Positions 11,871-29,000 of a stretch of 64,000 bases of DNA are shown piece by piece (positions within the stretch are counted from its first letter, which is position 1; the number at the start of each line of letters is the position of its first letter). The notes beneath the pieces are model-generated. The model did no database searches. It worked only from the letters and a program-made list of their open reading frames with translations, and was not told the origin of the DNA. The translations under genes and the position numbers were made by a program. Source of the DNA: Oceanispirochaeta sp. (GTDB taxonomy: Bacteria; Spirochaetota; Spirochaetia; DSM-2461); contig CAXXXD010000001.1 of NCBI GenBank assembly GCA_963663385.2, positions 160,001-224,000 on the forward strand, read 5' to 3'.

Positions 11871-13086
11871 ACATCCCTCCATTATTAATTATTGTTCTTC
11901 AAAGAAAACAAAAAGCTCATATTGCCGAAGAACTTTCTACAACTTAACTAATAATTAGATTGTATTTACTTTTAGATCCAAATATCTAATTGTTTTGCAC
12001 GAACACATTAAAATCCTATAATTGAAACAAATAAGCATCACAAATTCATCAGAATTCCGAAAAATCCTCATCATCAGAATGATCTTCCAAGGTTTTCACA
12101 GGCTTTACAGTTCTTTTCTGCAGCGCCGGACTTTCCCCGATATGAAAGAAGCTCACAAGGTCGTCCAGCTCATCCGATTTATTCTTAAGCTCTTCGGACA
12201 TGGCCGCTATCTGTTCGCTGGAAGAAGCGTTTGCCTGGATAACCTGATCCATCTGCAGGAGAGCCATATTGATCTGCTCGGCCCCCTTTGCCTGTTCATT
12301 GCTGCCTTCCATAATCTCTTCCGCGATTTCAGCCGATTTCTGAATGGCCGGAACCATATTTCGCATCAGCTCCCGGGTTTCGTCTGCTTTCCTGACGCTC
12401 TTGCCGGATATCTGCGTAATATCGTTGGCGGCAATCTGACTGTTTTCCGCCAGCTTCCTTACTTCGGAGGCAACAACGGCAAACCCCTTGCCGGCGTCCC
12501 CGGCCCGGGCCGCTTCAATAGCCGCATTCAGGGCAAGCAGGTTTGTATTCCGGGCGATTTCCTCAATAATGCCGATCTTCTCGGAGATGGTTTTCATGGA
12601 ATCAACTGTCTCTTCCACGGCCTGACCGCCCACGCCGGCATCCCTGGCCGCCTGGCTGACTATCGTATTGGACTGACGGGAGTTATCCGTATTCATCTGG
12701 ATATTGGCGGAAAGCTCCTCCATGGAGGCGGATATTTCCTCCGCACTGGAGGCCTGTTCGCTGGCGCCTGAAGCTACCTGCTGGGATGCGCTGGCCACTT
12801 CATTGGCATTCTGTTTTATCAGCTGCGCCGCCTCAACGATTCCCTTGACGATGAATTTCAGCCGTTCTATCATATCGGAGAACGCCTCGGCCAGATCTCC
12901 CGTTTCATCATGGGATAAAACCTGCAGTTCTACCGTAAGGTCGCCCTCTGCGATTTTCCGGGCCTCCCCGGCCAGATATTCCACAGGACGGGAAATCCTC
13001 TTACCCATAAACCAGGAGAGGATCAGGGAAAGGAGGACCACAAAGATATCCAGACCGACTATAAACAGGACAGTATTGAAGATACG
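10321..13086. repeat. direct repeat of about 950 bp (10321-11276 vs 12131-13086) within the two MCP genes
   Basis: Manual alignment at offset 1810 shows only about three substitutions. Confidence 0.9.
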
Positions 13087-13680
13087 GTTATTCAGGATTA
13101 TCTGCTCCCGGTTAATCAGAGCATCAATATCATCAATGTAATTCCCGGTCCCGACGATCCAGTCCCAGGGGGCAAAGTACCCATTATAGGCTCTTTTGGG
13201 AGAGGCGTCCTCTTCTCCCGGTTTGGGATAGTAGTAAGTGGTAAATCCTGTACCATCCTTTGCGGCTTTGATCAGATCCTGTATCAGATAGGTCCCATAG
13301 GTATCCTGCAGATCCCAGCGGTTGGTCCCTTCCGCCTCGCCGCCCAGCAAAACTAGAGTATCACCTTCAGAATCATAAACAAAAATATACCCGCTGTCCC
13401 CGTAGCGTATGGCACGTATATAATCCATGGCTTCTTCCATGGCTGCCGTTTCGCCAATTCCATCACTTCTGGCGTAAGCCATTTCTATTACGGTAAGAGC
13501 CGCCTCAACCTGACTCTGGGCCAAACGGTCAAAGTCCTCCCGGAGTTTGGTATCCAGGGTTTTGATATTCTCATCCCCAAGCTGCCCCAGTGCCAGGACA
13601 GAAAAAATCCCCATAATAACTCCTAACGAAATCAGACAGAGAAGTACCAGACCCATAATTCTCAAATGTATTTTTTTCAT
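12049..13680 (-). CDS. methyl-accepting chemotaxis protein, tandem paralog, pentapeptide DFSEF
   Basis: Same architecture; signalling region almost identical to the previous gene. Confidence 0.95.
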
Positions 13681-13982
13681 AGATCCTCCAGTTTTTTATC
13701 CGTCACGAGTTTAGAAGTAATAAATTCTCGGCTATCCTGTAAATAAAAGCAAGTTACAGTAATTCAGAGCTATATATAATCCGCTTTTAATTCCGGGATG
13801 CCCTGGAGTAAGACCGACAGAATTATTTCACTTGATTAGATAGGCTCTTATCTTAATAGTGATACCAGACCCCACCCGAAGCCTGCACTGACGAAAAAGG
13901 TCACTATATAGGGCTCCATATCGGCATCCTTCATGAGATAAAGTCTCTTACAGGTTATGATTTTACTTTCAGAAATTTTGAA

Positions 13983-14330
13983 ATATATAAGGAAATGCTC
14001 CATTCCCCCGGCTATGGAGTGGTAGCGGTTCAAACCGGAGAGGATGCCATTCGCAGGTACAGAGAATAATTGGATACAGGAACTCTGTTTGACCTGCTGA
14101 TTACGGATTTAACCATCCCGGGCGAAACGGGAGGAGCCGATGTGGCGAAAAAAATCCTGACGATCCATCCTGCTGCCAGGATTATCATCTCCAGCGGCTA
14201 TTCCTCCGATACCACAATGGCGGATTTCAGGGGGCATGGATTCAAAGGGATCATCGCCAAACCGTTCAATCTGAAAGATCTGGCTCATACCGTACAGGAA
14301 GCTCTGAAACATTCTGAAAATGCGGATTGA
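13983..14330 (+). pseudogene. truncated receiver domain (hybrid-kinase C-terminal type) with in-frame stop
   Basis: EMLHSPGYGVVAVQTGEDAIRRYRE*LDTG..FDLLITDLTIPG..SSGYS..AKPF; TAA at 14067-14069; N-terminal acidic pocket missing. Confidence 0.8.
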
Positions 14331-14362
14331 CAGCCTGGCCCCTGTCAAGGAAAATAGCAGAT

Positions 14363-14893
14363 ATGAAATATACCATTGAGAAATTAATTAACGAAGAACA
14401 ACTGGCTGAAAAAGTTGAAGAACTGGGAAAGACCATCGAGAAAGAGTATGCTCCGGAAGATGAAATTCTTCTGGTAGGCCTTTTGAGGGGGTCCACAGTG
14501 TTCCTCTCCGACCTGGCCCGCCATATAGATCTGGACGCCCGGTTTGATTTTATGGTTGTATCCAGCTATGGAAACTCAATGGACTCGACACGTGATGTTA
14601 AAATCAAAAAAGATCTGGAAGAAGAAATTCACGGACGCCATGTCATTATTGTGGAAGATATTATTGATACAGGGTATACCCTGCAGAAGGTAAAGGAAAT
14701 TCTGGAGCTCCGCAATCCGGCGTCCCTTAAAATATGCACCCTCCTGGACAAGCCGGACCGGCGGGAAGTGGAAGTTCATGTGGATTTTGTGGGATTTACC
14801 ATTCCCGATGTATTTGTTATCGGATACGGGATAGACTATGCCCAGAAACACCGGAACCTGCCCTATGTGGGAAAGGTTACCATAGAGGAATAA
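14363..14893 (+). CDS. hpt: hypoxanthine phosphoribosyltransferase
   Basis: [38 protein letters not shown]. Confidence 0.97.
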
Positions 14894-14988
14894 GCTCTTC
14901 CTGTAACCGCCGTTTTTGAAATACCTTCCCATTTCCCTTATAATTCAATAGGAGGGAGGGGATATATATCCTCATAGGGAGGTGCAAA

Positions 14989-16551
14989 ATGGCAAAGATA
15001 AAAAATAAGATCGCACTCCTCGTTTCCGTATTCCTTATATTCCTTACATTAGTGATCACTGCCCTTTCCATTATGTCCATCAGTCGGATAGGGAATCAGA
15101 ATCTGACACAACTGGACACGGAGCTGCGAAAAGACTTTGATCGAATGGCCCGTTATCAGGTGGAACAGGCCGTTTCCATGCTGGAAGTGTTTTATAATCA
15201 GGCGGAAGGTGCTGATATAACTGCAGTCAAAGAGGAGGCCGCGAAATTTCTGCGGGAACTCAGGTACGGAGAGGATGGTTATTTCTGGGCGGATACCCTG
15301 GATGGAACAACCGTTGTATTCATGGGGAATGAACAGGAAGGACAAAACCGCTGGAATGCGGAAGACGCCCTCGGCAACAGGTATATCCAGGATTTCAATA
15401 AACTGGGTGCCAGGGGAGGATTCACAAATTACTGGTTTCCCCGGCCTGGAGAACAGGAGGCCTCTCCCAAAAGGTCCTATACGATTTTATACGAACCATT
15501 CGGCTGGGTTCTTGGTACAGGTAACTACACAGATGATATAGATAAAATGATACAGACAGAAAGCCTCGCCATCAGGAAAGGAATTCAGAACAGTATCATT
15601 ATCATGTTAACAGTGAGTACGACTGTTCTGATATTAGCCATTCTGATTGCCCTTTATATGGGACAGAAAATTGCGGTCCCCATAACCCGGATTACCAGGG
15701 ATGCCAAGAAGGTTGCCGAGGGGGATCTCGACATCAAACTGGTCAGGCAGACAGGCGACGAAACCGGCCTGCTGGCGGAATCCTTCAATCAAATGATTGA
15801 ACAGCTTCAGGAGGTTGTCCTGTCGGTTCAGCACTCTGCCGATCTGATTTCCAACAATTCCGGGGAAATTACAAAATCCTCCCAGGCCGTTGCGACAGGC
15901 GCCAATGCTCAGGCTTCGGGAGCCGAAGAGATATCTGCCTCGATGCAGCAGCTTGTATCCAATATACAGATGAACGCCGAGAATGCCCGGAAATCCAACA
16001 CTATGACAAAAGATGCGGCAGATAATGCGGTTATCGGAGGAAAATCGGTACAGGAAACCGTAACGGCCATGCAGTCGATAACAGAAAAAATATACATAAT
16101 CGAGGAGATTGCCCGGAACACAAATCTTCTGGCTCTGAATGCGGCGATAGAAGCGGCGCGGGCCGGAGAGACAGGGAAAGGGTTTGCTGTAGTTGCTTCG
16201 GAAGTAAGGAAACTGGCGGAAAGAAGCCAGGAAGCGGCCAGAGAGATAACGGAGATAGCCCGGAGCAGCCTTTCTACCGCCGAGGAATCCGGAGAATTGA
16301 TCAATACGATGGTACCGAAAATCCAGGGCAGCTCCGATATGATTGAAGAGATTTATTCTTCAAGCGAAGAGCAGTATAAAGGAGCGGAACAGGTAAATGC
16401 AGCCCTCCTGCAAATGGACTCCGTAATTCAGACCAACGCCTCTTCCAGCGATAAAATTGCAGAGATGTCCCGGGAGCTGCTTGAACAGTCCAAAGCCCTC
16501 TATGATGCCATCAACTACTTCCATATGGGAGAGACCGAGGAATCCGAATAA
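14989..16551 (+). CDS. methyl-accepting chemotaxis protein (single Cache), no pentapeptide
   Basis: [34 protein letters not shown]. Confidence 0.95.
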
Positions 16552-20835: not shown

Positions 20836-20955
20836 ACTGAAGAAGTAATATTTAATTTCTTTTCTCCGGACCCTTCTCAGGAGGAGTATTATTTCCAGTT
20901 ACATCTCCCCTGAGGAGTGCCTGGAAATGAACATTTCAGAACAATCACAATAATA

Positions 20956-22776
20956 CTAATCAACAAGGGGAAACGCCATTTTCACAATACACCCCATTTT
21001 ATCTTTTCTGTTATTTATTGAAATTGTCCCCTGATACTTTTTGATAATCCCGTAAACAAGGGACAGACCTAATCCGGTATTTATGCCATTATAGGATTTT
21101 GTTGAGTAGAATGGGGTAAAATAGTCTTTACTGATGTCTATACCCGCTCCAGTATCTTCTATCTGTATTTCCAGAAAGTTCTCATTATTCACAGATATTC
21201 TCTCAATTGTAATGTCAATATCGCCATCTTTCTGAATTGACTCGAAACTGTTCTTGATTATATTCAGCAAAGCCTGCTTGAATTCGTTTTCATTAATATA
21301 AACGACATTGTTCTTATTAAGCTCAGTCAGATTGATGCTGATATTCTTCAGTTTCGCATTAACCCTCAGCAGATCTATCATTTCCTTTACCAGATCATTG
21401 ATGCTGGCATTTTCCGGAGCGACCTTTTCCAGATTGGAAAAATTCTGGAGATTACTTACTATTTTATTAATATATCTAACCTGCTTTGATAATTGATCAA
21501 CAATTTTTATGAGATCAGGTTCATTGTATCTGAATCTGATGTTTGTAAGGTAATTACTGATTATCTCAAGGGGATTATTTATCTCGTGAGCAACCCCGGC
21601 AGAGAGCAGGCCGACAGACGACAATTTCTCCGATAGATGATTGTTCTGCTGCAGGGAATCGTATTCTGTAATATCATAAAATATCAGCATTGATCCGATC
21701 TTGTTATTACCGTCATAAATCGGAGAGTAGTGTACGTTGTAAATGCCTTTCGTATCATTGATATTCAGTGATAAATGATAAATTGTATTTTCATCGTTTT
21801 CTGACAGCTGATCCAGTATTATGTTTTTTGTAGTAATAATTGTTTTGTCAAAGATACACTCTCCCGGTTTCTCAATGTAATCGCCTATATCGATATGAAA
21901 ACTATCAATGAAATATTTGTTAGCGAGCTTCAATATTCCATTATTGTTAAGAATGATTAAATTAACCGGAAGATTTTCGAGTATGGCTTCATTGTATTTT
22001 ATCAAATGATAGAAAGAGTCAGAGGAAGTCTGAATCACAGGCGTTTCCGATAACTGGGTATAAGCCATTCTGATTATCTGCATTCTGCCGATGCTTTGAA
22101 CTGACTCCGTAAGGATATTCGTCCCATATCGTATTATTGATACTCTATCAGATATATCGAATGCCCAGTCGATTTTATGAGTCATGAGAATGATACAGCA
22201 ACCGCCATCTCTTAATTTCCTTAGAATGCTTTTCAACTTGGAATAATACTCAACGGACAACTTATCCAGAGATTCATCCAGAATCAGGACCCTTGGATTA
22301 TTTTTAATTTTTGCCAGTATGGAAACAAGGGCCCGCTCGGATAAAGTCAGGTTTTTAGTCACTTTATCAACATCAAGATCGAAACCGAACCCCTTCAGAT
22401 ATGTATCTGCTGTTTCATGGAGTCTTCTTTTCAGGGAAAGAGAAAAAAACGGTGACGTGTTATCACAGAAAAAGAGATTTTCCGCAACCGTAAAATATGG
22501 ATTCAGCATTAATTGCTGATGAACAAATTGAATACCGGTCTGTTGTGCAACTTTCGTCTTAATAAAGCTATAATCCGTATTATCAACTGAGACGGTACCG
22601 GATTCCGGTCTTACCAATCCGCACAGAATCAGGCCGATACTGGATTTCCCGGCACCGTGTTCCCCGATCAGAGCATGTATGCTGCTGCTTGTAAAACTGA
22701 TATTTATATCATTTAGAGCTCTGACTTTATTAAAATTAAGCCGTACGTTTTTTATATCGACAATTTTATCAGACAT
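20956..22776 (-). CDS. soluble sensor histidine kinase with N-terminal sugar-ABC ATPase domain and PAS-like domain
   Basis: Walker A GEHGAGKS, Q-loop VHQQ, Walker B LILDE, switch THK; then LENLPVNLIILNNNG (PAS-like), GVAHEINNPL, N-box LLNIIKNS, DTGAGI, GLGLSL. Confidence 0.9.
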   Translation of the reverse strand: MSDKIVDIKNVRLNFNKVRALNDINISFTSSSIHALIGEHGAGKSSIGLILCGLVRPESGTVSVDNTDYSFIKTKVAQQTGIQFVHQQLMLNPYFTVAENLFFCDNTSPFFSLSLKRRLHETADTYLKGFGFDLDVDKVTKNLTLSERALVSILAKIKNNPRVLILDESLDKLSVEYYSKLKSILRKLRDGGCCIILMTHKIDWAFDISDRVSIIRYGTNILTESVQSIGRMQIIRMAYTQLSETPVIQTSSDSFYHLIKYNEAILENLPVNLIILNNNGILKLANKYFIDSFHIDIGDYIEKPGECIFDKTIITTKNIILDQLSENDENTIYHLSLNINDTKGIYNVHYSPIYDGNNKIGSMLIFYDITEYDSLQQNNHLSEKLSSVGLLSAGVAHEINNPLEIISNYLTNIRFRYNEPDLIKIVDQLSKQVRYINKIVSNLQNFSNLEKVAPENASINDLVKEMIDLLRVNAKLKNISINLTELNKNNVVYINENEFKQALLNIIKNSFESIQKDGDIDITIERISVNNENFLEIQIEDTGAGIDISKDYFTPFYSTKSYNGINTGLGLSLVYGIIKKYQGTISINNRKDKMGCIVKMAFPLVD

Positions 22777-22777
22777 C

Positions 22778-24103
22778 CTACAATATTCCGTATTTTTTCA
22801 ATTTGAGATAAAGAGTATTACGGCTCATCTGTAAATATTTGGCTGTTTCCGATTTGTTATTACCGGTTTTCAATAAAACTTTCCTGATCAGTTCTTTTTC
22901 TCTCTGCTGAACAATACTCAATGAATCATTATCATTTGATCCGCTTATTTCAAAACTCGGGGGCAGATCCTCCATTCTGATTTCATTGTTCTGGGAAATC
23001 GTTGCCGCATATAAAAGAGCATTCTTAAGCTCGCGTATGTTACCAGGCCAGTGATAGTTCATAAATACATGTTTGACCTGATCAGATAGAGATTTCCTGG
23101 GGTTTTTTGCATTGACGCTTATTTCATTTAGCAGAACATCTGTCAGTGCATCGAAATCTTCCCTGCGATTCCTTAAGGGCGGGATTTTCAGCAGACCGCC
23201 GTTCAACCGGTAAAACAGATCTTCCCGGAAAGAGCCTTCCTCAACCATATCCGACAGGTTTTTATTGGTAGATGCTATAAATCTGACATCAATTTTTCTG
23301 ACTTCCTTTCCGCCGATTCGTCTCACTTCCTGATTTTGAATCACTCTCAGGATCTTGGCCTGAAGAGTTGTGGGCATATCTCCAATCTCATCCAGAAGCA
23401 GCGTGCCATTGTTCGCCTGTTCAAACACACCGAGATACTCGGAGGAAGCCCCTGTATAGGCGCCTTTTTCATGCCCGAATAATTCATTGTCCAGAAGACT
23501 CTCCGGAAAGGCTGCACAATTAATTTTTATAAAATTTTCGGAAACCCTATTCGAATTCCTGTAAATGTAATCCGCCAGCAATTCTTTGCCGGTTCCATTT
23601 TCACCTATGATCAGGATTGAGATGTCTGATTCTGCCAGTTTTCTGGCCCGATTTAATAGACTGCTGAACTCTGCATTTTCGCTGCTTAATATATTGCATT
23701 CTTTTTTCAGCCTGTCTTTTAGTTTTTCATTTTCTTTTTTAACTCTTAAATTTTCAGTTGCCGTATCGATTCTTGTACACAGGGTATTGAAATCTATGGG
23801 TTTTTTTACAAAATCGAAAGCTCCCAGCTTCATTGCATTGACTGCCGCTTCAATCGTTGCATACCCGGTTATCATAATCACGGGAATAGGGGGATATTCC
23901 TTTTTTATTTTTTCAAGAGTTTCGACTCCGTTCTCGTTCCCTAATCGTACATCAAGCAAAATAATATTAATATCTTCTTTTTTCAGGACAGAAAAAGCAT
24001 CTTTTGTATTTTTGGCATAAAACAGATAATGCCCGACAAAAGAAAAGTTATCTTTCAGTACCTTATATAACTGTTGATTGTCATCTATGAATAAAATATC
24101 CAA
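22778..24103 (-). CDS. NtrC-family sigma54-dependent response regulator
   Basis: REC (IDD, LLDV, KP), GENGTGKE, GAYTGA, LLLDEIG, WPGNIREL, Fis HTH; AGGAG 8 nt before TTG 24103. Confidence 0.95.
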   Translation of the reverse strand: MDILFIDDNQQLYKVLKDNFSFVGHYLFYAKNTKDAFSVLKKEDINIILLDVRLGNENGVETLEKIKKEYPPIPVIMITGYATIEAAVNAMKLGAFDFVKKPIDFNTLCTRIDTATENLRVKKENEKLKDRLKKECNILSSENAEFSSLLNRARKLAESDISILIIGENGTGKELLADYIYRNSNRVSENFIKINCAAFPESLLDNELFGHEKGAYTGASSEYLGVFEQANNGTLLLDEIGDMPTTLQAKILRVIQNQEVRRIGGKEVRKIDVRFIASTNKNLSDMVEEGSFREDLFYRLNGGLLKIPPLRNRREDFDALTDVLLNEISVNAKNPRKSLSDQVKHVFMNYHWPGNIRELKNALLYAATISQNNEIRMEDLPPSFEISGSNDNDSLSIVQQREKELIRKVLLKTGNNKSETAKYLQMSRNTLYLKLKKYGIL

Positions 24104-24165
24104 ATTCAAGTCTCCTGTAAGCCAAAGCACAGTGTTATATGATTTAGTACAACCTGAACAGACAC

Positions 24166-24182
24166 TGTCCTAATTTAGGACA
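24166..24182. promoter_or_regulatory. perfect palindrome TGTCCTAA-T-TTAGGACA, candidate enhancer (UAS)
   Basis: TGT-N11-ACA about 100 bp upstream of the -24/-12 site; partial second site at 24135-24151. Confidence 0.7.
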
Positions 24183-24269
24183 ATGATAATACAACAATTA
24201 TAAACCCGCAACGATAAAAATCTGTTTAACTTACTGCTATATTAGCATTAATAAGAATCACCCTGATCC

Positions 24270-24285
24270 TGGTATGGTAATTGCA
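24270..24285 (+). promoter_or_regulatory. sigma54 -24/-12 promoter TGGTATG-GTAA-TTGCA
   Basis: GG-N10-GC spacing is exact; matches the TGGCACG-N4-TTGCW consensus. Confidence 0.8.
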
Positions 24286-24328
24286 TTGAATTATAACCAG
24301 AACGTATAATCATAACAAAGGAGAGAAA

Positions 24329-25342
24329 ATGAAAAAACTGTTATCCCTATTATTAATCAGCTGTCTGGGATTCGCTTCTGTTTTTGCCTCCGGGGCAAAT
24401 GATGCTCAGGCCGATTCCGGGGAAAAGAGTATCGGTGATCTGAAGATAGTACTGATTCTTCCGGGACCGATTAATGATCAGTCATGGAATGCGACAAACT
24501 ATGCCGGTCTTGTCGCATGTAATGAACAGCTTGGAACGAAAATGGAATATGTTGAGAATGTTCAGGCATCGGATTATGAATCGACATTCAGAAATTACAG
24601 CGAAAGAGGCTATAACCTGATTATGGCAGCGGGAACGCAATTTGATGATGCTGCCAATAAAGTAGCCGCTGACTATTCTGATACAACATTCTGCGTTGTT
24701 AATGGATTCAGAGCAGATTATCCCAATGTATCTCCTATTTTCCCCAAGGAATTCGAAGCGAGCTATATCGCCTCGTTAATTGCGGGAGAGGTGACAGAAA
24801 ACGGAAAGTTTGCCACTATCGGCGGTTTTCCGAATGAGGCGATGGAAAAGCTTCTGGATGTTTATGAAAAAGTTTCCGTCAGTATAGCAAAAGAAAGAGG
24901 GATCTCCGGTTCCAGTGCTAACAGATCGTATGCCAATAGCTGGGATGATATTGCCCTCGGAAAACAGATGGCTGAAACAATGATTGACAATGGTGCAGAT
25001 ACACTGTTTGTATACGCCAATCAGGTAGGGTTAGGAGCTATTCAGGCCGCAAAAGAGAAAGGCAAGAAATTTGTCGGATTTTCCAGTAATCAAAATGAAA
25101 TCGCCCCGGGAACAGTAGTTGCCTCGGTCATTTTTGATTTTCAGATTTTCTACACGTGGGCTGTCGAAAAATACTACAACGGAACTCTGACAGGCGGAAA
25201 AGTACATGAAGCCGGAATCAGGGAAGGGATCTTCAGACCCGTTTACCCGAGCGCATTTTCAGAGGATATAAAATCAAAAGTTGAAGCCGGTATGACAAAG
25301 GCAATCAACGGAGAAGTTGATTTCCAGTCAATGTTCAAGTAA
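24329..25342 (+). CDS. BMP-family ABC substrate-binding protein (nucleoside/purine-like)
   Basis: LPGPINDQSWNAT.Y.GL, SWDD..LGK..A..MIDNGAD; signal peptide ending FASG. Confidence 0.9.
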   Translation: MKKLLSLLLISCLGFASVFASGANDAQADSGEKSIGDLKIVLILPGPINDQSWNATNYAGLVACNEQLGTKMEYVENVQASDYESTFRNYSERGYNLIMAAGTQFDDAANKVAADYSDTTFCVVNGFRADYPNVSPIFPKEFEASYIASLIAGEVTENGKFATIGGFPNEAMEKLLDVYEKVSVSIAKERGISGSSANRSYANSWDDIALGKQMAETMIDNGADTLFVYANQVGLGAIQAAKEKGKKFVGFSSNQNEIAPGTVVASVIFDFQIFYTWAVEKYYNGTLTGGKVHEAGIREGIFRPVYPSAFSEDIKSKVEAGMTKAINGEVDFQSMFK

Positions 25343-25351
25343 TGGCAGATA

Positions 25352-25390
25352 ACACAATTCCCTGATATTGATCAGGGTATTGTGTCTTTT
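25352..25390 (+). terminator. intra-operon stem-loop after the SBP gene (partial terminator or mRNA stabiliser)
   Basis: ACACAAT.CCCTGAT/ATCAGGG.ATTGTGT followed by CTTTT. Confidence 0.65.
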
Positions 25391-25519
25391 ATCGGGTAGA
25401 CGCAAACCACAGGCAGCAGGATTACAAATAATTAATACATTTCATTCTATGTGGAAAAATCAGAGCATAAATTGAAGGATTTGCCGGAAATTATCAGTAA
25501 TTCCTCTAGGAACAGCATT

Positions 25520-27037
25520 ATGAATAAACCTTTTTTTGAACTGAAAAATATATCAAAATATTTTGCCAAAGTAATTGCAAACAAGGATGTTTCCTTATCC
25601 ATTAATCGAGGCGAAGTCCTGGCTCTCCTGGGAGAAAACGGGGCAGGAAAGAGTACATGCATGAAAATCCTTTACGGGCTTTATCAGGCTGACGAAGGAG
25701 AGATTTTCAAAGAAGGTGAAAGGATAATAATCAAATCACCCAAAGATGCAATGCAGCATAGGATTTCCATGATTCAGCAGCATTTCTCTCTCGTTTCAGC
25801 GCATACCGTTACGGAGAATATTATCCTCGGAAATGTAAAAGGGAAAATAAACTGGATTGAGGAAGAAAGAAAGATTCAGAAATTGGCTGATCAGTACGGA
25901 TTTGCTGTTGACTCCCGGAAAAAGATAAAAGATCTGACTGTAGGAGAGCAGCAGAAAGTTGAAATATTAAAGGCATTATACTTGGACGCGAATTTGCTGA
26001 TAATGGATGAGCCCACAGCAGTGTTAACTCCTCAGGAGATAGATATATTAATGGATTTCGTTAAGGGTTACTCCAAACGGGGCAATGCCGTTATTTTCAT
26101 AACCCATAAGCTTAAGGAAGTAATGAGTGTAGCAAACAGAATTATTGTAATGAGATCCGGAATGATACATGGGAATGTATTAAAAGAGCAGACAAATGAA
26201 ATTGAATTATCAAAAATGATGATTGAACATACAATTAAAGAATTAGAGAAAGTCAACGATGATAATGATGTGAAAGATGTCAGCCTTTCCGTCAGGAATT
26301 TAACCGTTAGGCAGAAGAACGAGATCCCCCTGTTAAATGATGTATCTTTTAATATTCACAGGGGTGAAATCTTCGGTATTGCCGGAGTTTCAGGCAATGG
26401 ACAACAGGAACTCTGCATGGCAATCTGCGGAGCCGTAAAACCGGTTGGTGGATCAATCATCCTTGAAAATGAGGACATAACCGACTTTTCGATCAGGAAG
26501 AGAATCTCTATGGGAATGGGATATGTCCCGTCGGACAGACATCGGTATGGAATGCTTATGGACATGAGCCTGTCCGAAAACATCCTGCTTAAAACCAGTT
26601 ATTCCAAAAAGTGGAAAAAGAATGGATTGATTGATAAAAAGAAACTGACCGATACTACAAATCAGATATTAGAGAAATTCAATGTGAAAGCTCCGGGACA
26701 TTACTCCCTGGCAAAAGAATTGTCCGGTGGAAATCAGCAGAAGGTCATTGTCGGCAGAGAAGTCGAATTCTGCGGAGATTTCATTATATTCGATCAGCCT
26801 ACCAGAGGTTTGGATTTAGGCGCAATCAACAATGTCCACTCGGCCATATTAAAAGAGAAGCAGAAAAACAAGGCTGTTATGCTGATCTCGACAGAGTTGT
26901 CTGAAATTTTTGCCTTATCCGACAGGGTTGCTGTTTTCTATAAGGGCGAAATACAGGGTATATATAAAACATCCGAACTCAGCAGTGAAAAAATCGGGTT
27001 GCTTATGGCTGGATATAAGCATCAGGAGGCAATCTAA
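25520..27037 (+). CDS. CUT2/nucleoside ABC transporter ATP-binding protein (tandem NBD)
   Basis: GENGAGKS, DEPTAVL, GVSGNGQ, LSGGNQQK, QPTRGLD. Confidence 0.95.
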   Translation: MNKPFFELKNISKYFAKVIANKDVSLSINRGEVLALLGENGAGKSTCMKILYGLYQADEGEIFKEGERIIIKSPKDAMQHRISMIQQHFSLVSAHTVTENIILGNVKGKINWIEEERKIQKLADQYGFAVDSRKKIKDLTVGEQQKVEILKALYLDANLLIMDEPTAVLTPQEIDILMDFVKGYSKRGNAVIFITHKLKEVMSVANRIIVMRSGMIHGNVLKEQTNEIELSKMMIEHTIKELEKVNDDNDVKDVSLSVRNLTVRQKNEIPLLNDVSFNIHRGEIFGIAGVSGNGQQELCMAICGAVKPVGGSIILENEDITDFSIRKRISMGMGYVPSDRHRYGMLMDMSLSENILLKTSYSKKWKKNGLIDKKKLTDTTNQILEKFNVKAPGHYSLAKELSGGNQQKVIVGREVEFCGDFIIFDQPTRGLDLGAINNVHSAILKEKQKNKAVMLISTELSEIFALSDRVAVFYKGEIQGIYKTSELSSEKIGLLMAGYKHQEAI

Positions 27038-28086
27038 TGGATAAAAAAAACCGGGATATTCTTATTACCAGCTTCCTGGCAATTCTGTTGGGACTGATTC
27101 TCAGCGGTATTATGGTTCTTTTTCTGAAAAAGAATCCCATATATGTTTTCAGCATTCTCTTCTCATCCATGTTTCGGGATGGCTATACAATCGGAGAAAT
27201 CTTTGTAAAGGCGACACCCCTGATTTTTACGGCGCTGGCTTTTGCTTTTACGTTTAAAGCGAATCTTTTCAATATTGGAGCCCAGGGGCAATTCTATATG
27301 GGATCGATAACGGCTGTGACTGTATCGTTATTTATACCGTCTCCCCTTGCCATTCCACTGGCTATTTTCTTCTCTTTTCTGATCAGCGGGATATGGGGAG
27401 GCTTTATTGGATTCTTTAAAGCCAGATTCAAAGCGAATGAATTTCTCATCAGTATGATGAGCACTTATGTCGCCCTGAATTTTATGAACTATTTACTGAG
27501 AACAGTCCTGATGGAAAGCAAAGGCGAATACCCTCAAACCGATTCGCTGGTAAAAAGTACCTGGCTATTTAAAATTGTTCCGCATACAAGACTTCACTTC
27601 GGTTTTGTTCTGGCGATTCTTGCTGCAGTAATTGTCTGGCTCATACTCTACAGAACGACTTTGGGATTCAGGATCAGAGCTGTGGGACAAAACCAGGAAG
27701 CTGCAAGGATGAGCGGCGTCAATCCTGAAAGGATTTATATTTTCACCTTTTTTGTCAGCGGAGGACTGGCGGGTCTTGCCGGAGTCACAGAGGTCAATGG
27801 GGTTCAGCATATGCTGCTTCAGGGTTTTAACCCTTCAATTGGAGCCCTTGGCATAGGAATCGCTATTTTAGCCAATGCCAATCCCATAGGGATCATCTTC
27901 GCTTCAATCCTGTTCGGAGCCTTGCATGTAGGAGGTACTATCATGGGCCAGCTGTCAGGAGTGCCTTCCAGTATTATAAATTTAATGGAAGGGTTTGTTA
28001 TGGTATTTGTCATCATCTCTTATTTTGTGCGGAAGAGATGGGAGTTGAACAGAGAAAAAAAACTTCTTAAGGAAGGGATCTACTGA
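27037..28086 (+). CDS. nucleoside-type ABC permease 1
   Basis: LFNIGAQGQFYMG, RTTLGFRIRAVGQN..AA. Confidence 0.93.
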   Translation: MDKKNRDILITSFLAILLGLILSGIMVLFLKKNPIYVFSILFSSMFRDGYTIGEIFVKATPLIFTALAFAFTFKANLFNIGAQGQFYMGSITAVTVSLFIPSPLAIPLAIFFSFLISGIWGGFIGFFKARFKANEFLISMMSTYVALNFMNYLLRTVLMESKGEYPQTDSLVKSTWLFKIVPHTRLHFGFVLAILAAVIVWLILYRTTLGFRIRAVGQNQEAARMSGVNPERIYIFTFFVSGGLAGLAGVTEVNGVQHMLLQGFNPSIGALGIGIAILANANPIGIIFASILFGALHVGGTIMGQLSGVPSSIINLMEGFVMVFVIISYFVRKRWELNREKKLLKEGIY

Positions 28087-29000
28087 TGATTGTGAGTTTA
28101 TTATCCAGAGCAATGATGATGAGTACGCCGTTATTATTCGGATCCTTATCGGAAGTCTTTTCCGAAAGAACCGGCGTGATGGTTACTGCAATCGAGGGGA
28201 TCTTCCTGATGGGAGCCTGGGCGGGCTTTACTGCAACTTATTTAACCGGGAGTTTAGGCCTGGGAATACTTTTTTCAGCACTTTCCGGTTTATTAGTGGC
28301 CATCCTCTATGCCTTTATTGTTGTAACTTTGAAACAGCATCAAATCGTAACAGGAACAGCTATAAATATTCTGATCGTCGGTCTATGTTCATTTCTGCAG
28401 AGAGTGGTTTTCGGGGTTCCTCTATCGCCATTAACTGTCGAACCCTTAAAAAAACATGCAATCCCGCTGCTTTCAGAAATACCTCTATTAGGTCCGATAT
28501 TCTTCAATCAGAATATATTAACATATTCAATCTATGCACTTGTTCCCCTGGGATTTTTTATTCTCTATAAAACATCTCTCGGACTGGTAATCCGGTCTAC
28601 AGGTGAAAATCCGGAAGCCGTCGATGTATCGGGCATTAATGTATCAAAAGTCAGATTCTACACTGTTGCCGTTTCCGGCATAATGTGCGGTATTGCAGGA
28701 GCTTTCTACTCTATAGGCTATCTGGGAATGTTTACCACAAATATGATCGGCGGGAGAGGCTGGATCGCCTTTGCAATCTGCTTTCTGGGGAACTGGAATC
28801 CGGTAGGAGCCTTCATTGGAACGGTTATCTTTGGATTAGCCGAAGCATTTGCCATTTTAATGCAATCGAATTCAGCGACTATGCTGCCCAACGAACTGTT
28901 TATATCATTGCCGTATATACTGACGATAATACTGACAATAAGCAGGAAATCATTTAATGTTCCTTCCAGACTGGGAACGGCTTATATGAAAGAGAATTAA
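28086..29000 (+). CDS. nucleoside-type ABC permease 2
   Basis: SERTGV...IEG, GENPEA, GRGWIAFA..FLGNWNP, LPYILT. Confidence 0.93.
   Translation: MIVSLLSRAMMMSTPLLFGSLSEVFSERTGVMVTAIEGIFLMGAWAGFTATYLTGSLGLGILFSALSGLLVAILYAFIVVTLKQHQIVTGTAINILIVGLCSFLQRVVFGVPLSPLTVEPLKKHAIPLLSEIPLLGPIFFNQNILTYSIYALVPLGFFILYKTSLGLVIRSTGENPEAVDVSGINVSKVRFYTVAVSGIMCGIAGAFYSIGYLGMFTTNMIGGRGWIAFAICFLGNWNPVGAFIGTVIFGLAEAFAILMQSNSATMLPNELFISLPYILTIILTISRKSFNVPSRLGTAYMKEN

Follow-up and report, generated by a model that had tools for sequence, protein, structure and literature searches.

An ABC nucleotide-binding domain at the head of a soluble histidine kinase linked to CUT2 importers

A 64,000-nucleotide stretch of the Oceanispirochaeta sp. 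assembly GCA_963663385.2 (contig CAXXXD010000001.1, positions 160,001 to 224,000; hereafter the window, whose own numbering is used for all features) encodes a soluble sensor histidine kinase of 606 amino acids (20956..22776, minus strand). A nucleotide-binding domain (NBD) of the ATP-binding cassette (ABC) type stands at its N-terminus and is followed by a linker, a predicted PAS domain, a DHp domain (HisKA) and a catalytic ATP-binding (CA) domain (HATPase_c), an order established from the open reading frame (ORF), Pfam, NCBIfam and an AlphaFold2 (AF2) model. The kinase gene is paired with the gene of a sigma54 activator and lies beside those of a CUT2 ABC importer, which the kinase probably switches on by reading the pump itself. 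The NBD-kinase architecture is real, conserved and apparently uncharacterised.

The activator gene (22778..24130, minus strand) lies directly upstream of the kinase gene, a single base separating its stop codon from the kinase ATG. Its product, 450 amino acids from the listed GTG start, is a response regulator with REC, AAA+ (containing GAYTGA) and HTH_8 domains, which score 83.7 (REC), 221.3 (Sigma54_activat) and 51.8 bits (HTH_8) in Pfam. It belongs by these domains to the NtrC family of bacterial enhancer-binding proteins and falls below the NCBIfam equivalog cut-off for AtoC (399.7 vs 714). Divergent from this pair, on the plus strand, runs an operon for a BMP-family (PnrA-like) substrate-binding lipoprotein of 337 amino acids (24329..25342; Pfam Bmp, 164 bits; signal peptide with Cys in the translation), a CUT2 ATPase with two NBDs and 528 amino acids from the listed GTG start (25451..27037; two ABC_tran domains in Pfam), and two BPD_transp_2 permeases of 349 (27037..28086) and 304 amino acids (28086..29000), both recognised by Pfam and NCBIfam. 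By its content (Bmp, 2 x ABC_tran, 2 x BPD_transp_2) this operon encodes a CUT2 ABC importer, and its ATPase falls in the BMP-type NBD1 and NBD2 groups of the NBD tree described below. The initial annotation, made from the letters of the sequence, had placed the kinase 1 nt downstream of an NtrC activator and the pair opposite a BMP, ATPase and two-permease operon, and the ORF map and Pfam bear this out. A perfect 7-bp stem-loop found by pattern match, CCCTGAT-ATTG-ATCAGGG (25360..25377, plus strand), lies between the binding-protein and ATPase genes and may govern how much binding protein is made relative to the pump.

Domain make-up and integrity of the kinase

Residues 1-240 of the kinase (22057..22776) are a CUT2 NBD1-type ATP-binding cassette domain by Pfam, NCBIfam, phylogeny and motifs. 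ABC_tran (PF00005) matches residues 21-169 with 75 bits against a cut-off of 25, and residues 1-240 align to the first half of the CUT2 ATPases modelled in NCBIfam: YtfR (1.5e-43), the 'B6' ATPase (6e-43), AraG (1e-42) and likewise AlsA, XylG and RbsA, all six with E values of 1e-36 to 1e-43. Residues 256-604 align to AtoS (2e-56). Both matches are far below the equivalog cut-offs, the best CUT2 score being 148.9 bits vs 850 (YtfR) and the AtoS score 191.4 vs 646, and the kinase is not a CUT2 ATPase equivalog, having one NBD vs the two per chain of those enzymes.

A linker at residues 241-261 (21994..22056), delimited by pLDDT and alignment, leads to the probable PAS domain at residues 262-368 (21673..21993). 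The Pfam match of this domain is borderline (PAS_4, residues 266-371, 22.8 bits, just below the cut-off of 23.1); the paralogue HK5 scores 37.4 bits with PF00989 (cut-off 22.6), PF08448 is precomputed for many relatives, and the order of strands and helices in the AF2 model is compatible with a PAS fold. The DHp and CA domains (residues 370-604; 20965..21669) are defined by Pfam and by invariant columns, with HisKA at residues 390-450 (30.8 bits, cut-off 26.9) and HATPase_c at residues 496-604 (58.5 bits, cut-off 26.4). The phospho-acceptor is H397, in the motif HEINNP, and the boxes of the catalytic domain are N505/N509, D541xGxG and G568xG570; H397, N505, N509, D541, G543, G545, G568 and G570, which place the protein in the HisKA class, are invariant in 102 sequences. 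The kinase has no transmembrane (TM) segment; its highest 19-residue Kyte-Doolittle mean is 1.14, vs 2.28-3.02 in six permeases.

The AF2 model (102-sequence alignment, mean pLDDT 77.9) is confident over the NBD (residues 1-239, pLDDT 80-93 except 101-120) and contains a PAS-like alpha/beta unit (262-368), a two-helix DHp (370-445) and a catalytic domain (455-604). Linker residues 240-261 have a pLDDT <50 and are predicted to be disordered; the linker is variable in sequence and nearly constant in length, with one gap position in a 22-sequence alignment. Since pTM is 0.43, the mutual arrangement of the domains is unpredicted.

The NBD contains a Walker A motif GEHGAGKSS (38-46), Q-loop residue Q87, a signature LTLSER (143-148), a Walker B motif LILDE (164-168) and the switch His H200, together with a C-terminal helix, conserved and specific to this family, whose last residues are MAYTQ (237-241). 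K44, Q87, D167 and E168 are kept in 29/29 kinase NBDs and H200 in 27/29, and the Q-loop/ENLF segment is common to kinase NBDs and NBD1. The signature departs from LSGGQ: LTLSER has no Gly-Gly, Ser is found in 17/29 members, and the family consensus L-N-L-S-D/E-R is more degraded than the already weak signature of NBD1. Kinase NBDs also have GEHG in Walker A where CUT2 NBD1 has GENG, and a remodelled D-loop, with DE-[AS]-L-[ED]-K after Walker B vs DEPT-S-A-L in NBD1. These family-specific changes fall on the side of the domain that faces a partner NBD. The features on which the initial annotation had built its case, namely a kinase free of TM segments, a CUT2 N-terminal ATPase half over the first ~240 amino acids with GEHGAGKS, Q-loop, LILDE and switch His, a degenerate signature LTLSER, and a PAS-like domain preceding HisKA and HATPase, were all recovered by these searches.

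A profile of the kinase NBDs scored a mean of 181 bits on NBD1 and 74 on NBD2 of the 38 two-NBD CUT2 ATPases of this genome. In a tree of 29 kinase NBDs, 38 NBD1 and 38 NBD2 (IQ-TREE quick search, LG+G4), the kinase NBDs constitute one clade (29 rows, SH-aLRT 98) nested within the NBD1 clade. This clade is sister, with weaker support (88), to four BMP-type NBD1s that include the neighbour ATPase, and kinase NBDs do not cluster with the NBD1 of their own neighbouring pump. A single clade within NBD1, apart from the cognate pumps, indicates that the fusion arose once and then spread among kinds of pump. In the same 38 ATPases, NBD2 has Arg for the Walker A Lys in 31, Glu for the Q-loop Gln in 32 and Ser for the switch His in 30, and its signature is canonical (LSGGNQQK, with SGG in 38/38); NBD1 is the reverse. 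With Walker A/B, Q-loop and His intact in NBD1, the signature intact in NBD2 and the rest degenerate, these CUT2 pumps thus have one consensus and one degenerate ATP site. The solved structures include no close CUT2 relative of the kinase NBD; the best matches are exporter NBDs (E ~1e-21).

The idea that the fusion is an artefact of assembly or annotation, or a decaying gene, retains next to no credibility. Broken relatives do exist (L111 and L178), and 7 of the 120 best matches in a search of 5.8 billion proteins are rows of 353-490 amino acids with one half only. However, the remaining 113 carry both ABC_tran and HATPase_c, with lengths of 598-646 amino acids and identities down to 38%. A junction query (residues 150-380) against 1.84 billion representatives, which were clustered at 50% identity, gave 39 matches at E <= 1e-30 and 202 at E <= 1e-10, and ~120 of the best 150 are proteins of ~600-625 amino acids aligned across the NBD-PAS junction at the identical position. 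The catalytic motifs of both halves are all conserved. The ORF is intact, without indels across the junction, in single contigs from three runs of three studies (20900-25400; 0, 0 and 6 substitutions), one identical contig of which may be the source assembly of the window. The initial annotation had itself raised the prospect of a fusion unique to this assembly or split by a stop or frameshift between the domains; the indel-free contigs and the many relatives of the same architecture rule this out.

Distribution, importer linkage and sigma54 control

The family comprises at least ~120 clusters at 50% identity and extends over several phyla. Source names of the relatives include Sphaerochaetaceae, Pleomorphochaeta, Marispirochaeta and other Spirochaetota, as well as candidate division KSB3/Vecturithrix and Desulfomarina. 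Of 300 other genomes sampled evenly across the window's phylum, 8 give a match at E <= 1e-60, and some of these have two or three copies. The automatic names of the relatives are limited to 'ATP-binding cassette domain-containing protein' or composite JGI labels. A full-text literature search, with subscription journals outside its coverage, returned no paper on an ABC-NBD/histidine-kinase fusion, in keeping with the initial annotation, whose author knew of no characterised example.

Linkage to CUT2 importers recurs in three samples. The genome of the window (5.3 Mb, 4 contigs) encodes five full-length kinase paralogues with pairwise identities of 26-39%. In every case a REC-sigma54 activator gene immediately precedes the kinase gene on its strand, and a binding protein (Bmp, Peripla_BP_4 or Peripla_BP_1), a double-NBD ATPase and a BPD_transp_2 permease are encoded next to the pair (5/5 in both respects); three of the cassettes are divergent and two co-directional. 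The cassettes are modular, five with different binding proteins occurring in this one genome. As controls, 10.1% of the genome lies within 7 kb of any of the 38 CUT2 ATPase genes, and 1/6 other REC-sigma54 activators is near such a gene. The second sample consists of 17 loci with 18 kinase genes from other genomes, with neighbourhoods taken from all ORFs and checked with Pfam. Here an activator is adjacent to the kinase in 18/18 and transporter genes are present in 17/18; these 17 copies comprise 14 complete sets (L111 included), one with a single-NBD ATPase (L112) and two cut by the contig end after a transporter gene.

The third sample, a metagenome scan with the N-terminal 300 residues, yielded 79 loci; in 77 of them there are 80 kinase genes, of which 69 have the full length. 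An activator gene lies next to the kinase in 63/64 assessable copies, the exception being an over-extended ORF call. Where at least 7 kb of upstream sequence is available, a double-NBD ATPase and a permease always occur within 7 kb (36/36 copies), and the same holds where 7 kb is available on either side (21/21). The kinase-ATPase distance at the metagenome loci has a median of 2.6 kb. The counts are non-independent, since near-duplicates occur among these loci. This is the conserved neighbourhood of CUT2 transporters and enhancer-binding activators for which the initial annotation had proposed a check.

Several loci vary this layout. At L112 (5703-12124), activator, NBD-kinase, binding protein, permease and a single-NBD ATPase of 265 amino acids lie on one strand and are followed by GatZ-like and PfkB genes. 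L022 (1299-15955) has two complete cassettes back to back, and L002 (4563-15488) has one activator-kinase pair with a CUT2 transporter set on either side. Two loci are decayed or badly assembled: L111 (9250-13935), with a kinase of 482 amino acids interrupted by one in-frame TGA and an ATPase in two ORFs, and L178, in which kinase, ATPase, permease and binding protein are fragmented with many frameshifts.

Control of the importer by sigma54, as the initial annotation had it, is likewise predicted here. A -24/-12 element, TGGTAT-N5-TTGCA, was found by pattern scan at 24270..24285 on the plus strand (TGGTATGGTAATTGCA, GG-N10-GC), 59 nt 5' of the BMP start codon, and the genome has rpoN (190 bits). 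On both strands of the whole 5.3-Mb genome there are just 26 occurrences of the strict pattern TGGYAY-N5-TTGCW. Four of these 26 matches precede the binding-protein genes of cassettes 1-4, cassette 1 being that of the window, and cassette 5 has a match with one mismatch. The metagenome loci contain the strict pattern 42 times in 0.94 Mb, vs 26 times in 5.3 Mb of this genome; 27 of the 42, at 26 loci, lie just 5' of a same-strand binding-protein, ATPase or permease ORF, and most of the other 15 lie in the divergent gap beside the activator gene. A scan for sigma70-type promoters was no richer than shuffled sequence (22 vs 23.5). Some ~85-105 nt upstream of the -24 element is an inverted repeat with 11-nt arms, CACTGTCCTAA-T-TTAGGACAATG (24163..24185), a candidate activator binding site by its position, and each paralogous cassette has, by eye, a different palindrome at the corresponding position. 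Kinase and activator keep all catalytic motifs (H397 and the N/G boxes; REC and the GAYTGA of AAA+). That the pair serves as the dedicated sigma54-type regulator of the adjacent importer is well supported.

The surroundings of cassette 1 differ from it in composition. G+C is 0.34-0.43 per kb within the cassette (21000-29000) and 0.34 in the kinase gene, compared with 0.47-0.51 in the flanks and 0.46-0.47 in the genome. The flanking genes, for an ECF sigma factor, a DUF4384 protein, a caspase-domain protein and an SBP_bac_8 protein, are unrelated; together with the low G+C they suggest that the whole module arrived in one acquisition. No catabolic genes that would name the substrate lie in the flanks of cassette 1. 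Elsewhere in the window (12049-16551), two sCache_2-HAMP-MCP chemoreceptor genes (12049-13680, minus strand, and 14989-16551, plus strand) bracket a phosphoribosyltransferase gene.

How the kinase may read the pump

Taken together, the six genes would be a self-contained unit that induces a BMP-type CUT2 ABC importer. The kinase is envisaged as a cytoplasmic homodimer in which an NBD1-like ABC domain on a flexible ~20-residue tether replaces the sensor domain. In its ATP-bound form, the NBD would plug into the coupling helices of the cognate permeases, competing with or replacing the two-NBD ATPase of the pump, and the permeases would act as a transmembrane receptor for a soluble kinase. Docking of substrate-loaded BMP, or transport cycling, would alter the hold on the two kinase NBDs, and this altered hold would set autophosphorylation at H397. 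The phosphoryl group would pass to the REC domain of the activator, which would bind the inverted repeat at 24163-24185 and open the predicted sigma54 promoter at 24270-24285, raising transcription of the BMP, ATPase and permease genes. Of this scheme, the domain make-up, the conserved motifs, the gene linkage, the sigma54 elements and rpoN are observed; the NBD-permease contact, the way the signal runs and the substrate are inferred.

Docking of the kinase NBD on the permeases, with sensing through the pump, is assigned a probability of about 45%. It is favoured because the kinase has no other route to periplasmic information, and because its domain is of the pump's own NBD1 type in a family tied to CUT2 pumps. 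Two structural features argue in the same direction: the Q-loop segment that faces the transmembrane domains is kept while the NBD-NBD face is remodelled (the faces being assigned from general knowledge of ABC proteins), and the tether is constant in length and variable in sequence. The initial annotation had proposed transporter-coupled sensing of this kind; the architecture it described, which proves to be conserved and dedicated to CUT2 importers and sigma54 activators, stands, and docking on the coupling helices of the permeases can be called plausible. Its other suggestion, an NBD that senses nucleotide state, stands as a rival.

Co-variation is consistent with such a contact. In ABC proteins, the parts of the NBD that touch the coupling helices are the Q-loop and the start of the helical subdomain. 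Pairwise divergences were compared over 27 single-permease cassettes with Mantel-type tests, which ignore relatedness. Residues 81-130 of the kinase correlate with the permease at r = 0.70 and with the activator at 0.56; the partial r with the permease given the activator is 0.58, a value that 0/2000 permutations reach. Kinase residues 131-240 (-0.10) and the CA domain (-0.05) are close to zero in the same comparison with the permease, PAS divergence has a partial r of 0.27, and residues 81-130 are the only region of the kinase to track the permease better than the activator. Docking is further favoured in that the pump's own ATPase peaks against the permease at the equivalent place (residues 61-90, r = 0.87). 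A complex prediction for permease 1, permease 2 and kinase residues 1-245 (30-, 22- and 102-row alignments) gave, without controls, 0.02 and 0.01 vs a mark of 0.32, and counts neither way. An unexplained signal is that kinase residues 1-80 resemble the cognate NBD1 more than the NBD1s of other pumps (mean rank 10.3 of 32; 2/5000 permutations).

A number of observations weigh against docking. The pair statistics come from related cassettes and overstate significance. The NBD is not alone in its signal, for the DHp is also partially correlated with the permease (0.48). The whole NBD correlates with the kinase core at r 0.82 and with the activator at 0.83, vs 0.53 with the permease. This last value is far below the r = 0.89 between the pump's ATPase and the permease. 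In a rank test among 32, residues 81-130 are no closer to the cognate NBD1 than to non-cognate ones (mean rank 18.5, null 16.5), and residues 131-240 likewise show no signal of cognate NBD1 similarity. No complete metagenome cassette is without its own full ATPase; since every complete cassette has one, the kinase NBD would have to compete for the permease. With 38 CUT2 systems per cell, docking would have to be specific. The conserved Glu and His are not obviously explained either, because both composite ATP sites of a kinase homodimer would combine an intact Walker A with a degenerate signature. At L110 (7662-16130), the one copy of the 18 from other genomes that lies apart from a pump, no transporter lies within 9 kb, and activator and NBD-kinase are followed by genes for a LacI-type regulator, an FGGY sugar kinase, a class II aldolase and an L-arabinose isomerase.

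Part of this evidence would suit a kinase that senses in the cytoplasm, with the PAS domain binding the imported substrate or a metabolite. The NBD would then act off the pump as a nucleotide-dependent regulatory or dimerisation module, for example in ATP/ADP gating of a costly importer, and adjacency to the importer would merely reflect the target operon. Two-component genes often adjoin their target operon, so linkage alone needs no contact, and a locus such as L110 is accommodated. Strict conservation of the ATP-binding and catalytic residues is expected of a nucleotide binder, the whole NBD co-varies with the kinase core and the activator and not with the permease, and the disordered linker predicted between NBD and PAS is a poor route for conformational signalling. 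However, this account leaves unexplained why the domain is a CUT2 NBD1 and why the association is with CUT2 systems only (36/36, 17/18 and 5/5). Retention of the Q-loop and ENLF segment and the closer tracking of the permease by residues 81-130 than of the activator speak against it as well, as does a PAS partial r with the permease (0.27) below that of NBD residues 81-130 (0.58). Cytoplasmic sensing is considered somewhat less likely than docking. Sensing of flux through the ATPase is more improbable still. Here the kinase NBD would pair with an NBD of the pump, likeliest NBD2 with its LSGGNQQK, and read the ATPase cycle. The only consensus site in the 38 CUT2 ATPases is formed by the Walker A of NBD1 and the signature of NBD2, and the kinase NBD keeps the catalytic set of NBD1, including Glu168 and His200, which is hard to explain without a canonical signature in trans. 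Divergence of the whole NBD also tracks the ATPase (r 0.69) more closely than the permease (0.53), but this is explicable by the tight ATPase-permease correlation (0.89). Furthermore, the two NBDs of the pump share a covalent chain and are paired with each other already, so that NBD1 would have to be displaced by the kinase NBD. No region of the kinase NBD resembles or complements the NBD2 of its own pump in particular (mean ranks 15.7-17.1 of 32).

A more specific form of docking, advanced with somewhat greater hesitation than docking itself, has the NBDs of the kinase dimer replace the ATPase on a fraction of permease dimers. Binding protein, permeases and kinase would then form a signalling transporter, an ABC 'transceptor in trans', in which the degenerate signature would allow ATP binding without productive hydrolysis; such binding would turn the docking of loaded binding protein into kinase activity. 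If true, this would be the first ABC NBD to serve as the signal-input domain of a two-component system.

Comparison with known transporter-linked sensors

The Bce-type modules of Firmicutes (BceRS-BceAB), in which a histidine kinase senses through an ABC transporter, are described in terms of 'flux sensing' by Fritz et al. (2015; PMC4513084), and the structure of BceAB is treated in a separate paper (PMC9169098). The NBD-kinase loci resemble these modules in that regulatory genes adjoin transporter genes. BceS is a membrane kinase that has two TM helices but lacks an input domain and is reported to touch the permease inside the membrane; the transporter confers resistance, the regulator is of the OmpR type, and kinase and ATPase are separate. 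In contrast, the kinase described here is soluble and carries an NBD, the transporter is a binding-protein-dependent importer and the activator is a sigma54 one.

A sigma54-type activator, CbrB, is known from the Cbr system. CbrA and CrbS are 'transceptors', fusions of an SLC5 solute symporter domain to a kinase (PMC13022988, PMC7096432, PMC5715377). Their likeness to the NBD-kinase is that a domain of the transport machinery and a histidine kinase share one polypeptide, while the SLC5 domain is a membrane domain and the part fused here is a soluble ABC ATPase domain with the permeases encoded separately.

Another related group is that of the binding-protein-dependent kinases, represented in a review by XylFII-LytS, which controls the xylFGH CUT2 importer, LuxP-LuxQ, TorT-TorS, ChvE-VirA and HptA-HptS (PMC8050422). 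Like the module described here, XylFII-LytS is presented there as a two-component system that induces a CUT2-type sugar importer, in that case in response to a periplasmic binding protein (PMC8050422). In the five systems, as that account has it, a periplasmic ligand-binding domain of the kinase touches the binding protein, unlike in the NBD-kinase, which has no such domain. With neither a membrane nor a periplasmic part, the NBD-kinase could receive information from the binding protein only via the permeases. The text of the review (PMC8050422) contains no occurrence of 'nucleotide-binding domain' or 'ATPase'. The genome of the window also encodes two conventional sets (L225, C2:640546-646808, and L226, C1:297361-301831), each with a kinase of 701 or 704 amino acids, a REC-sigma54 activator and a Peripla_BP_4 protein; these kinases have an N-terminal region of ~290 amino acids followed by HAMP, HisKA and HATPase, and one set adjoins a CUT2 ATPase. 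As both membrane-sensor sets and NBD-kinases occur in one genome, the NBD-kinase looks like an alternative solution to the same task.

In PstSCAB-PhoU-PhoR, MalK-MalT and DctA-DcuS, the activity state of a transporter, in two cases that of its NBD, is relayed to a transcriptional regulator. There the NBD stays in the pump and acts in trans, whereas here a copy of the NBD is the input domain of the kinase. Compared with the CUT2 ATPases themselves (RbsA, AraG, MglA, YtfR and 'B6'), residues 1-240 of the kinase are homologous to NBD1, but the kinase has a single NBD and a remodelled signature and D-loop. With regard to ABC mechanics, an NBD1 half with conserved catalytic residues and a non-conserved signature raises the question of what completes the ATP site.

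The ability of cells to read their own transporters is known for few systems, in which kinase and pump are separate and the contact is hard to map; a part of the pump fused to the kinase names the likely contact surface. Given its size, modularity and spread over several phyla, the family could provide a general route of induction for binding-protein-dependent importers that operates without a membrane sensor, and its cassettes are a source of orthogonal sugar- or nucleoside-responsive switches. An ABC NBD as part of the kinase is absent from the Bce, CbrA/CrbS, binding-protein-dependent, Pst-PhoU-PhoR and MalK-MalT systems compared here. Transporter-coupled sensing by two-component systems is already known; what appears to be new is the ABC NBD within the kinase.

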